From assembly GCA_963772365.1 (NCBI GenBank), contig CAVYXA010000003.1:704001-768000 (forward strand): a DNA stretch of 64,000 nucleotides. Reading direction: 5' to 3'. Origin of the DNA: an uncultured Verrucomicrobiae bacterium (lineage in GTDB: Bacteria; Verrucomicrobiota; Verrucomicrobiia; Chthoniobacterales; UBA10450). Every line of letters starts with the position of its first letter. The stretch's first letter is position 1. Made by a program: the position numbers and the translations under genes. Shown here in pieces: positions 60,721 through 63,899 of this stretch. The notes under the pieces were generated by a model. That model made no database searches. It saw nothing but the letters and a program-made list of their open reading frames with translations, and was not told the DNA's origin.

Positions 60721-60938
60721 CCTTTCCAACTCTGAGCCTCAAATCCTTTTCCGGTCAAATCTCTGAGCACGAATGCGGCAGGCGGGTGGAACGCGATCGC
60801 AGCCTGCTCGCCGCGGCGAGCCGATCCACCTTTGCTCGGGTGGACCGTGATCTCAGAGCCCGTTGTCAATGAACGCGCCGGAGGCGCCAAGAATCTAAGT
60901 CCGATGTGTCGGCGAGGATTCGTCAAAGATTCACATTC

Positions 60939-61916
60939 ATGAACAGGAACATGATCCTCACTCTGGTGCTGTGTAGCGGAGTTGTCAGCGATGCCGCTTT
61001 ACAGGCACAGGAAGCCACGCCCGCGCCAGCCACAACTTCACGCGTGATCGTCACTGAAACGAACCCGGACAGCGGGCCCGACGCTTTGTCCGGAACGGAA
61101 GCGGAGCCGGTCGGTCCCGCGCAACAGCCCGAGTGGACAACGCGGCGCGTTTTTGCCGATACCGATATTTACGTCATCCCGCCGGGCACATTCGAAGTGA
61201 ATCAGTTTCTCGATTCATTTCATCCGAGAAACGGCACGCATCAAACCTTGTTAGAGACCGAGTTCGAGAATGGGTTGCCATGGCGAACGCAGTTTGATGT
61301 CGAGCTGGATTACAGCCACCTCGGCGGAAGGACGCGATACGACACCACTTTGCTGGAGCTGCCGCATGCGCTTGCCGACTGGGGAAAAATTCCATTGAAC
61401 CCGACTGTCAACGGCGGATGGAGATTTGTTCACGACGAGCCCGACGCCTTTTTCTTTCGGTTACTGCTGGCGGATGAATTTTGGCGACGCATTCATTTCG
61501 GCGCGGATTTGACCTTCGATCGACAGATCGGCGGCGAGCAGGAAACCTCCTGGGAATTCAATCAAGCCGTAAGCTGGATCGTTTTAGAGAAAACGCTGAG
61601 CATGGGTTTTGAGATGCGCGCAGAATACGAGAAGGATCGAGTCGATGCCGACGAAGAAGAAACGGGAGCCGCTTCCCGAAGAAAGAGGAAATATGAATAT
61701 TCGACCTCAGTCGTGATCGGGCCGTCAGTTTTGTTCAAGCCGACACAACGCACGCATCTGGCCATTGTCCCGATGGCCGGCCTGACCCATGACAGCCCGA
61801 GTCTGGATGCGTTTCTCGTTTTCGGAATCGACTTCGGCGCGCGCGAAGAAGGCGAATCCACACCAGAAAATCCCAGCGATGAATTCCCGGCGCTTGCGCC
61901 AAGCGGCCGCCGTTGA
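60939..61916 (+). CDS. Hypothetical exported protein, possible outer-membrane beta-barrel
   Basis: Signal peptide; alternating beta-strand pattern ending FLVFGIDF. Confidence 0.65.
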   Translation: MNRNMILTLVLCSGVVSDAALQAQEATPAPATTSRVIVTETNPDSGPDALSGTEAEPVGPAQQPEWTTRRVFADTDIYVIPPGTFEVNQFLDSFHPRNGTHQTLLETEFENGLPWRTQFDVELDYSHLGGRTRYDTTLLELPHALADWGKIPLNPTVNGGWRFVHDEPDAFFFRLLLADEFWRRIHFGADLTFDRQIGGEQETSWEFNQAVSWIVLEKTLSMGFEMRAEYEKDRVDADEEETGAASRRKRKYEYSTSVVIGPSVLFKPTQRTHLAIVPMAGLTHDSPSLDAFLVFGIDFGAREEGESTPENPSDEFPALAPSGRR

Positions 61917-61993: not shown

Positions 61994-62196
61994 CTAATGT
62001 GTCACCCACCGGGCACGCAATTGCCGCAGCAGGGCTGTCTTGCTCGCGACAGGAAGCTTTTTCACCCACTTGCCGTTAATGCGGATGCGAAAACTTTTGC
62101 TATTGGCAAAAGAAGATCGACAAGATCCAGCTTCAGTCGCTCTCCCGTTTGATGATTCTTTAGCGCAAGCGAATAATGCGCTTTGGGCCGCGGCAT
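61994..62196 (-). CDS. Small basic hypothetical protein divergent from the cassette array (one frameshift near 62112)
   Basis: SD-like AAGGGAG. Restoring one base gives MPRPKAHYSLALKNHQTGERLKLDLVDL-x-FANSKSFRIRINGKWVKKLPVASKTALLRQLRARWVTH* (67 aa). Confidence 0.6.
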
Positions 62197-62209
62197 GCTC
62201 CCTTTTACC

Positions 62210-62238
62210 GTGACAACTCGCCGCGGGCCAACTATAAA
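62210..62238 (+). promoter_or_regulatory. Candidate cassette promoter (Pc-like) GTGACA-N17-TATAAA
   Basis: 5/6 match at both boxes, 17-nt spacing, about 60 nt upstream of the attI-like site and pointing into the array. Confidence 0.6.
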
Positions 62239-62288
62239 TAAAAGTCTCCCGTGCACAGAAAAATATCCCACCTCATACAAAAATCGAG

Positions 62289-62306
62289 GTCTAATTATAG
62301 TTAGGC
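62289..62306 (+). other. attI-like recombination site GTCTAAT-TATA-GTTAGGC
   Basis: Core GTTRRRY preceded by a near inverse core, in AT-rich context, with no attC hairpin upstream. GTTAGGC is the reverse complement of GCCTAAC at the end of cassette 1. Confidence 0.7.
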
Positions 62307-62308
62307 CC

Positions 62309-62755
62309 ATGGCAACGAAACGCGCGGCTTGGATTATCGTGTGGGATTGGGTGTCGGAGACCCGCAAGCCCAAACGGCAACTACTCCACATTCTTCAGCC
62401 GCGCTGGAAGATCTCGCGCGTGTTGGAGCACATGAAGTTTCTATATCTCAATTCCGAGCTTTTCACCGTCTCTGGTCGGTTGCCATTCCTTACGCAGAAA
62501 GCTTGGCGGGGGCTCGTGTTCCTGCAAGGCCCGCGGATTATCATCGGCGATGATCCGCTTCTGAACGGATCGTGGGTTCATGATCTTCGCGTTGATCAAG
62601 TGGGTCCGGGTGAGCAGATCGTGCGCTGGACACAACCCGCTGGTCTTCGGTTTCGCCCTGGGACGAATGATAAGGAATACGTCGGCGAGCCCAGGGAACG
62701 CGGGTTTTGCCTTGCGGTCCGAGAAAAAGTCGAGGAACTGCGCGGAAGGGCCTAA
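62309..62755 (+). CDS. Cassette 1 hypothetical protein (148 aa)
   Basis: ATG 2 nt after GTTAGGC; stop TAA lies inside the attC inverse core GCCTAAC. Confidence 0.8.
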   Translation: MATKRAAWIIVWDWVSETRKPKRQLLHILQPRWKISRVLEHMKFLYLNSELFTVSGRLPFLTQKAWRGLVFLQGPRIIIGDDPLLNGSWVHDLRVDQVGPGEQIVRWTQPAGLRFRPGTNDKEYVGEPRERGFCLAVREKVEELRGRA

Positions 62756-62872
62756 CCACGCGATGGAGCTGACTGCGAGCCGGCGTACGACCTTGCTTTC
62801 CATGACCTCAACCCTTTCAGCCGCCGCAGAGAGCGCCCTCGCTCGCAGCAGCTCATCTTGTTCTCGTTAGAC
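62750..62872 (+). repeat. attC site 1 (123 bp)
   Basis: R'' GCCTAAC, L'' GAT[G]GAGCTG[A]CTGCGAGC pairing with GCTCGCAGCAGCTCATC, R' GTTAGAC. Confidence 0.92.
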
Positions 62873-62891: not shown

Positions 62892-63434
62892 ATGGACGAC
62901 ACAGAAAAGCGCTTAGCCGAATTGAGTCAGCTTGAGACTCTGACGGATGCTGAAATGCAGGAGTTGGTGCGTCTTCGTCCCTTCGGGACATTTAAGACAC
63001 CCCCGAACTTACTGACACTTGGGGTCGTTGACCTCGACCAGGCCTTCCTCAACTACAAGGAAGGAGCGTCGCGATCTAAGCACGCATACAATGCTGGCTG
63101 CTTTATCGAGGTCATTTCGCTACGCTTGCAGCACATCGATTTTTGGCTTCGTAGTTTTTGGGTTGCCCGTAACCATAAGGGAAAGATCTTCGACGCCACG
63201 GACAAACGCACTTTTGGAGTCTTGGTTACCGATTGCGAGAAGCTTGGTTTTGACGCGTCTCTGGTTCAGCGCATGCGTTCATTCAACGTCTCCCGAGTAG
63301 AGAGCATTCACAAATACCTCCTCGGCGCGATCCGCTACGATGACCTCAAACCTGTCTGCGACGCCCACCAGGGACTTGATGCGGATGTCGGTAATTACGT
63401 GCGTGAACAGATCGGAGTTGTATGGACGTTCTAG
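62892..63434 (+). CDS. Cassette 2 protein, probable HEPN-domain RNase
   Basis: Helical; AGCFIEVISL...IDFWLR, TFGVL and an Rx4H motif (FNVSRVESIH). Confidence 0.7.
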   Translation: MDDTEKRLAELSQLETLTDAEMQELVRLRPFGTFKTPPNLLTLGVVDLDQAFLNYKEGASRSKHAYNAGCFIEVISLRLQHIDFWLRSFWVARNHKGKIFDATDKRTFGVLVTDCEKLGFDASLVQRMRSFNVSRVESIHKYLLGAIRYDDLKPVCDAHQGLDADVGNYVREQIGVVWTF

Positions 63435-63450
63435 CTGTACAACCGGAATC

Positions 63451-63573
63451 GTCTAACCATGCAGTCGAGCGAACGGCCACCCGCTGCGCGTTCACGTTTT
63501 GCGCGGCTCGTTCGGTTTTTCTGCCGGCCATGAGCGCTCCCGGTGGCCGTCGCTCACTTTATTCTCGTTAGAT
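63451..63573 (+). repeat. attC site 2 (123 bp)
   Basis: R'' GTCTAAC, AGT[C]GAGCGA[A]CGGCCACC pairing with GGTGGCCGTCGCTCACT, R' GTTAGAT. Confidence 0.93.
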
Positions 63574-63575
63574 CT

Positions 63576-63899
63576 ATGCGAATGCGTTCTCTAGTTCCGC
63601 TAGTCATCGCTGTCGCGCTGATTACCGGCTGCGATCGGTTGTCCCGTCCATCGGAAGCTGAGGTTCGGCAGCTTGCCGACCAGCATTCTCCAAATCATCA
63701 TCCCATTCACCACATTGAATACGGTCGGAGTTTCATCAGTCAGGGCGGCTCGGTAGAACTGAAAGCTGACGCCCCTAAAGGTACGAAAATATTTCCTGTC
63801 GAGCTCTACTTCACGAATGTGAATGGCTACTTCAAGATCGTTGCATGGGTTTTTAAAGATTCTTTTGGCCATTGGAAGTTCGTATTTCCCAATGAATAG
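63576..63899 (+). CDS. Cassette 3 lipoprotein (107 aa)
   Basis: ATG 2 nt after GTTAGAT; MRMRSLVPLVIAVALITGC lipobox; stop abuts ATCTAAC. Confidence 0.8.
   Translation: MRMRSLVPLVIAVALITGCDRLSRPSEAEVRQLADQHSPNHHPIHHIEYGRSFISQGGSVELKADAPKGTKIFPVELYFTNVNGYFKIVAWVFKDSFGHWKFVFPNE

Follow-up and report, generated by a model that had tools for sequence, protein, structure and literature searches.

The locus and its surroundings

The window is the whole 64,000-nt stretch of DNA that was analysed (G000:C3:704001-768000). Towards its end lies a small basic gene divergent from an attI site that heads an array with three attC sites. The features of this region are:

60906..61916, plus strand: convergent neighbour CDS, outside the module, no Pfam match
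61994..62196, minus strand: small basic gene, 203 nt, lacking one base after codon 28, 67 aa when intact
62197..62240, minus strand: ribosome-binding-site and putative promoter region of the small gene, from position frequencies in 92 distinct upstream regions
62210..62238, plus strand: Pc-like match GTGACA-N17-TATAAA, not conserved
62251..62280, no strand: three RTRYAY palindromic hexamers with a 12-nt period, starting at 62251, 62263 and 62275
62289..62306, plus strand: attI core GTCTAAT-TATA-GTTAGGC (L box GTCTAAT, 4-nt spacer, R box GTTAGGC)
62309..62755, plus strand: cassette 1 ORF, 148 aa, no Pfam match
62750..62872, plus strand: attC 1, fold z only -1.2
62892..63434, plus strand: cassette 2 ORF, 180 aa, no Pfam match
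63451..63573, plus strand: attC 2, bottom strand folds, z -3.66
63576..63899, plus strand: cassette 3 ORF, 107 aa, no Pfam match
63900..64050, plus strand: attC 3, last attC of the array, extending beyond the window end (64000)

The attI-like site that an earlier sequence-only reading had placed upstream of cassette 1 is present at 62289-62306, with its crossover G at 62300, and the three window hexamers fit RTRYAY at 6/6, 5/6 and 5/6 positions in the order of their starts. As that reading had described, cassette 1 lacks an upstream attC. The three attC sites are all downstream; their covariance-model scores are circular, as the three were among the 11 training sites of the model. An attC-like hairpin at 62225-62308 was considered and rejected, its fold z being about -1.2. 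The next gene is indeed an unrelated convergent CDS, the far-side flank in the window falls into no cluster with any of the 69 others, and the absence of an intI remnant is borne out by TIGR02249, which has no match on the window contig.

The divergent ORF of about 67 aa was said to be hidden by a single frameshift, and this agrees with a single alignment gap between the window ORF and an intact 204-nt paralogue in the same genome (G000:C2:48720-48923). Ordinary genes near the window ORF are likewise split: frameshifts interrupt several between 54000 and 60730, which we take from their motifs to be an asparaginase-like gene, parts of an Mla-type ABC transporter and a PIN/TRAM-like gene, suggesting an indel-rich assembly.

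The intact paralogue belongs to a second whole copy of the platform on C2, which is 73% identical over 319 nt and whose gene, with all 67 codons intact, heads a separate cassette array. On C1 there is a complete intI with an attI and an array of its own, in keeping with the remote integrase postulated by the sequence-only reading; a truncated intI with attI lies on C2, and none on C3. A third attI copy (L018, G000:C3:769740-769842), 1.8 kb past the window end, keeps about 90 nt of flank and has no small gene. It heads a cassette ending in a broken attC, whose product is presumably alpha/beta-hydrolase-like. Just before this site, a 47-nt piece repeats the end of an ABC-transporter gene located 2.4 kb downstream at 94% identity, which suggests a rearrangement. 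Between attC 3 and the third attI, where no attC was found, lie two tandem ORFs of about 190-200 aa (G000:C3:768306-769493) that look paralogous by eye. Furthermore, a cassette of the C2 array is interrupted by a 488-nt segment (L017:2438-2923, G000:C2:46438-46923) that is 97% identical to copies in two C1 cassette regions and looks like an insertion-sequence remnant.

Conservation and distribution of the small gene

With the intact paralogue as query, 56 proteins were found at 60-90% identity, and profile searches yielded 150 representatives and 351 proteins at E ≤ 0.001. Across 51 intact in-register copies, identity at the three codon positions is 0.72/0.80/0.48 and the median dN/dS is 0.195 (256 unsaturated pairs of 1275). 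The ORF is thus conserved under purifying selection, and the lack of conservation that would have refuted the sequence-only reading is not seen.

The gene is patchily distributed, being carried by 59 of 301 sampled genomes of the window's family (three matches weak) and by 9 of 401 in a phylum-wide sample. Family f19, for which similar proteins bear Opitutae or Opitutaceae names, contributes 32 carriers among 201 genomes, and another class 6 among 201, all from one genus of family f45. No copy was found among the 40 relatives first searched; copies appear in the wider samples. With the queries used, viral contigs, phages and plasmids yielded no copy of the gene. In a protein tree of 67 columns, with many forks open and split copies left out, f19 and f45 each form one group. 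The G710 protein groups with a Chthoniobacterales copy, though the intI-linked attI of G710 differs. Two longer homologues turned up among 8000 scored candidates, both resembling over-long calls and neither with a fusion partner. In a single one of the 150 representatives, P0190, the C-terminal half of the small protein follows an N-terminus that resembles IntI.

Predicted structure of the small protein

The model, built from a 72-row alignment (pLDDT 87.7), has strands at residues 6-13, 20-27, 35-40 and 50-52 and a helix at 53-66, giving a fold of a three-stranded sheet plus helix. Conserved Arg/Lys residues (3, 5, 13, 22, 34, 37, 39, 47 and 61) alternate with buried residues on the strands. 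The homodimer prediction scored 0.60 against 0.00 for the best control, a mark that 20 of 30 solved pairs and 1 of 23 single chains also attained; contacts agreed by 100% between runs (pLDDT 83), and the subunits are joined through strand 1 and the helices. This supports, rather than shows, that the protein dimerises, and a two-fold basic dimer of this kind would suit palindromic DNA.

Phage Xis/RDF proteins are small DNA-binding partners that modulate a tyrosine recombinase. Neither an Xis/RDF nor an Arm-DNA-binding profile matches the small protein in Pfam, PHROGs, NCBIfam or PDB sequences, where no family is common to more than one member. Fold searches with two models gave best Foldseek E values of 0.38-1.1 and best VIA Z scores of 4.4-4.5 to unrelated chains, with Xis/RDF and Arm-binding folds absent from the matches listed. 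PC4/PUR folds appear weakly (Foldseek E 1.9-3.3; Z 3.3, rmsd 4.5, 57 residues aligned), and a PurA profile matches 1 of 72 members, again weakly (E 0.0024). Atlas look-ups of the model reached 0.84-0.85 at best, to unnamed clusters, and gave no assignment.

Association of the gene with attI and attC

The loci compared comprise 50 from genomes and 80 from metagenomes (the best 80 of 153); they are kin and partly near-copies, and the counts below are not independent. A divergent attI core, defined as one on the opposite strand, 100-120 nt away, with at most two L-box mismatches, lies upstream of the gene in 96 of the 123 loci with at least 125 nt of flank (102 under a looser rule), and in 83 of the 96 at 105-108 nt. 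Eleven further loci are co-directional, with the site just past the stop codon and in the direction of the gene; 17 match neither arrangement, several of them truncated or cut off. The upstream region of the gene, with a purine tract at -11 to -3 and a CTGGC-like motif near -35, moves with the gene in the co-directional loci L131 and L151. All co-directional copies fall in one subclade of the protein tree, amid divergent ones, and the flip in gene orientation may have been a single event.

Sites for attC were searched with a covariance model built from 11 attC sites of the window's genome. They occur on the array side in 58 of the 60 divergent loci with at least 1 kb and in 8 of 9 co-directional loci, whereas far-side sites occur in 4 of 69 loci, of which three are tandem platforms. 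Homologues of the small gene are thus closely linked to attI/attC arrays; the lack of such enrichment was an outcome that would have refuted the sequence-only reading. IntI was found by tblastn at none of 131 loci (many flanks are short; 56 have at least 2 kb on the far side), and with no relative carrying intI next to the gene a simple deletion is not indicated. A tRNA integration site was considered and rejected, the flank containing a tRNA at 2 of 131 loci.

A search with the site alone was positive in 36 of 301 genomes and gave no control match. Of the 30 loci listed from it, 25 have the gene or a remnant within 700 nt, two have a site of the same type but no gene, and three are solo sites of another type. 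Ten of the 25 gene copies are split or partial, which suggests that the gene is often lost where the site stays and that genuine decay is common besides assembly error, to which some of these cases are perhaps due. Genome G283 supplies one of the site-first loci, and G151, G273 and G003 enter the family tallies; no claim is based on these alone. The three solo sites (L269, L276, L279) have an inverted repeat around a TTTAAA centre followed by the same core, and lie directly after ordinary genes with neither intI nor the small gene.

For f19, the core is found within 3 mismatches in 22 of 30 loci against 0 of 60 control windows, one locus with too little flank having been left out. Other tyrosine recombinases, which by eye look phage-type, are encoded close to two f19 loci. 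As judged across all these loci, the gene-attI link holds in three families from two classes, with protein identity of about 30%, and survives inversion and many different flanks.

Several copies per genome occur, and G712 has three platforms in tandem. The tandem platforms of G712 and G713 (L236, L237, L239) are spaced at 2-4 kb and have 1-3 cassettes each, with a 300-nt tail in common. They adjoin at truncated attC sites, which in many cases follow the hydrolase-like cassette known from the window's genome. Seventeen loci have one neighbourhood in common, and in the five inspected (L025, L028, L077, L086, L089) the platform is convergent with what is, judging by its sequence, presumably a glutamine synthetase gene (glnA).

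The flank of the attI core

RTRYAY hexamers stand at -49, -37 and -25 upstream of the platform cores. At least two of the three are present at 80 of 87 divergent sites, a count that is circular since the motif was derived there, and at 8 of 9 co-directional sites, against 0 of 21 intI-linked attI sites and 4% of shuffles. The palindromes remain with the core where the gene is flipped, and their centres lie 22, 34 and 46 nt from the crossover. From this comparison, palindromes at 12-nt spacing take the place of the usual attI flank at the platforms. The families f45 and f19 differ in detail: TAAATTTA-type palindromes repeat at 12 nt in f45, with pairs in 6 of 6 loci (AT-rich DNA, no shuffle control) and palindromes beside both the gene start and the core in 5 of 6; pairs were scored in just 9 of 30 f19 loci and mostly overlap the gene's own upstream region.

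The promoter proposed earlier to fire into the array is borne out only as a sigma-70-like match in the window. GTGACA-N17-TATAAA is present at 62210-62238, but it is not supported as more than a chance match and is absent from the consensus scan, and none of 87 distinct homologous platforms reaches 9 of 12 positions with TA at the corresponding place.

Site use and the source of integrase

The first cassettes are diverse (93 in 81 clusters), as are the far-side flanks (70 in 45 clusters). Within sets of loci such as L077/L078/L085, L028/L088/L089, L029/L097/L098, L127/L129 and L128/L150, the platforms are 97-100% identical over gene and spacer, and unrelated sequence begins just after GTTAG. 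A switch right at the attI crossover is the pattern left by integron insertion, which indicates that the site took up cassettes recently.

Platform cores of the window's family have the same geometry and consensus as the intI-linked cores, and the f19 core is of a different, AATAACACTG-TT type at platforms and intI loci alike. Genome G687 is closed, and its platform and intI locus, 1.2 Mb apart, have in common a 505-nt stretch of 99.4% identity that starts with the core and takes in the first cassette. The platform array of G710 contains attC sites that match ones from the three intI loci of that genome at 72-92% identity, and its platform core is of the window-family type, unlike its intI-linked attI.

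By hand count, intI is present in 39 of 56 carriers versus 130 of 245 non-carriers in the window's family, and in 23 of 32 versus 78 of 169 in f19 (Fisher p 0.03 and 0.01, overstated because kin are not independent). No intI was found at E ≤ 1e-40 in 17 of 56 and 9 of 32 carriers (about 30%), including G051 and G107, which are 95-96% complete. Taken together, these comparisons suggest that a host IntI encoded elsewhere probably carries out insertion at the platform. The IntI proteins of f19 and f45 (L211-L217, L223) are 400-490 aa long, their N-termini being extended by some 100-150 aa, and by profile they are unrelated to the small protein.

Comparison with known systems

A CALIN is defined by at least two attC sites with no intI nearby (PMC4889954, PMC8618304), and half of CALINs lie in IntI-encoding genomes (PMC4889954). 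They are explained by loss of intI, rearrangement or insertion at secondary sites, and IntegronFinder matches the attI of classes 1-3 only, and exactly (PMC4889954). The window array is CALIN-like in having three attC sites, no intI on its contig and IntI elsewhere in the genome. However, attC alone defines a CALIN, whereas at the head of this array stand a conserved gene and a conserved attI, in recent use and with a flank of its own. The module fits the CALIN definition, yet the concept does not explain it.

Like a complete integron, the platform has a gene divergent from an L/R core ending in GTTRRRY, repeats upstream and entry at the G (compare attI1 with DR1/DR2; PMC12901181, PMC8946536). 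It differs in that the gene encodes a 67-aa non-recombinase, with no adjacent intI and no conserved Pc match of the sigma-70 type; and, in contrast to DR1/DR2, the platform repeats are palindromes spaced by 12 nt that are absent from the intI-linked attI of the same family. Cassettes inserted by IntI away from an integron recall attG sites and SALINs, but attG sites arise by chance, vary among themselves over their 18 nt and have a GWT core that does not resemble attI (bioRxiv 10.1101/2022.09.11.507474). An attG-type secondary site was rejected, since the platform core is the attI core of the lineage at a fixed distance from the gene. In the 11 co-directional loci an ORF is followed by attI as in delta-attI cassettes (PMC12901181); however, no attC or attI precedes the platform gene, which, tandem copies aside, heads arrays. 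The module as a gene cassette, either an inverted ORF or delta-attI, was likewise rejected, with RYYYAAC in 8 of 82 flanks against 14.3 expected and far-side attC in 4 of 69.

Factors known to act on integrons include FIS, IHF, H-NS, LexA, RecA and an unknown factor for the Vibrio attIA (PMC8876359, PMC8946536). As with these and with Xis/RDF, a small DNA-binding protein would modulate a tyrosine recombinase or its promoters, but the known ones are global host proteins or phage partners, whereas this one is encoded beside attI. No dedicated protein encoded beside attI is described in the available parts of PMC8876359 and PMC8946536, and no description of the module was found in the titles and abstracts searched, which covered subscription literature thinly.

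A proposed satellite attI and its alternatives

Comparison across the loci shows that gene and attI form a conserved module, that cassettes turn over at the G/TT point and that no intI adjoins. The distinct minimal platform without intI that the sequence-only reading had put forward is therefore borne out as a recurring module (core in 96/123, IntI in 0/131). We consider it somewhat better than an even bet that the module is a satellite attI on which IntI acts in trans and where a dedicated homodimer, bound to the palindromes, modulates recombination. IntI from elsewhere in the genome would insert attC cassettes at the G/TT point, a step that the comparison supports well, and the small gene occupies the place of intI in a normal integron. 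The basic homodimer would bind the palindromes spaced by 12 nt that immediately precede the core, where integrons have an extra integrase-binding flank, and would tune use of the site by stimulating or gating IntI recombination, with possible further effects on cassette transcription and on its own expression. As the window gene is frameshifted, the intact paralogue could supply the protein in trans; gene-less palindrome-type sites and split or partial gene copies argue against a strict need for the gene in cis. Weighed against the satellite model are the gene-less sites, the carriers without intI, the core mismatch in G710, the weak palindromes of f19, the confinement of co-directional loci to one subclade and the kinship among the loci counted. 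More tentatively, and at well under even probability, the module may constitute a second attI class in Verrucomicrobiota whose own accessory protein, a homodimer of unassigned fold, would attach next to the core and there license or gate the action of IntI in trans. One integrase would then run several separately controlled cassette arrays, and an integron-specific recombination accessory factor would be encoded at attI, which is not described in the literature consulted.

The protein could also be only a transcription factor on the palindromes of the same satellite attI, switching the cassettes (and its own gene) on and off in place of a constitutive Pc and leaving recombination unaffected. 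Without a conserved sigma-70 Pc in the 87 platforms, expression needs another route, and the palindromes lie beside gene start and core in 5 of 6 f45 loci and mostly overlap the gene's upstream region in f19. However, at 22, 34 and 46 nt from the crossover they overlap integrase-flank as well as promoter positions, and they replace the flank found at intI-linked attI; we regard this explanation as unlikely, though deserving serious consideration. Decidedly less probable is that gene and attI form a small mobile unit, moved as IntI-made circles or by another enzyme, whose protein serves movement and not cassette capture. The 45 clusters of far-side flanks, the multiple copies per genome (three in tandem in G712), the patchy occurrence (59/301), the grouping of the G710 protein with a Chthoniobacterales copy despite its differing intI attI, and the excision of ORF-attI units by IntI1 (PMC12901181) would all suit such a unit. 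It is opposed by the lack of a conserved far end (8 of 82 flanks, against 14.3 expected, have RYYYAAC no more than 300 nt from the stop), by the 17 loci in one neighbourhood (five inspected, beside the presumed glnA), by the single f19 and f45 groups in the protein tree and by the lack of matches among viral contigs, phages and plasmids with the queries used.

That the gene is a passenger of unrelated role beside an orphan attI, as in an ordinary CALIN keeping its attI, would agree with the solo attI sites of this and another type (5 of 30 loci listed). We nevertheless hold it to be quite improbable, for the link persists across three families and two classes at about 30% identity, through inversion and varied flanks, and the site has a flank motif of its own. 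A relic of a normal integron, with intI deleted and the ORF a fragment or chance frame, is largely refuted and carries hardly any weight. P0190, with its IntI-like N-terminus, and the truncated intI with attI on C2 of the window's genome are what such a relic might leave; against it, the profile finds nothing in the extracted IntI proteins (best E 0.16), the codon-position identities (0.72/0.80/0.48) and dN/dS (0.195) are those given above, and the flank is unlike that of intI-linked attI.

Implications

The module is a real and apparently undescribed, phylum-spanning variant of the integron platform. In Vibrio, recombination of attIA with attC needs an unknown factor, and the attI1 repeats have been suggested to replace such factors (PMC8946536); the platform protein is a small, clonable candidate for a factor of the attIA type. 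The module could also serve as a switchable landing pad for cassette engineering. Arrays without an integrase are usually taken as leftovers, but here a whole class shares a conserved, recently used point of entry together with a conserved gene. For some CALINs this provides a concrete origin, and one IntI probably serves several loci.
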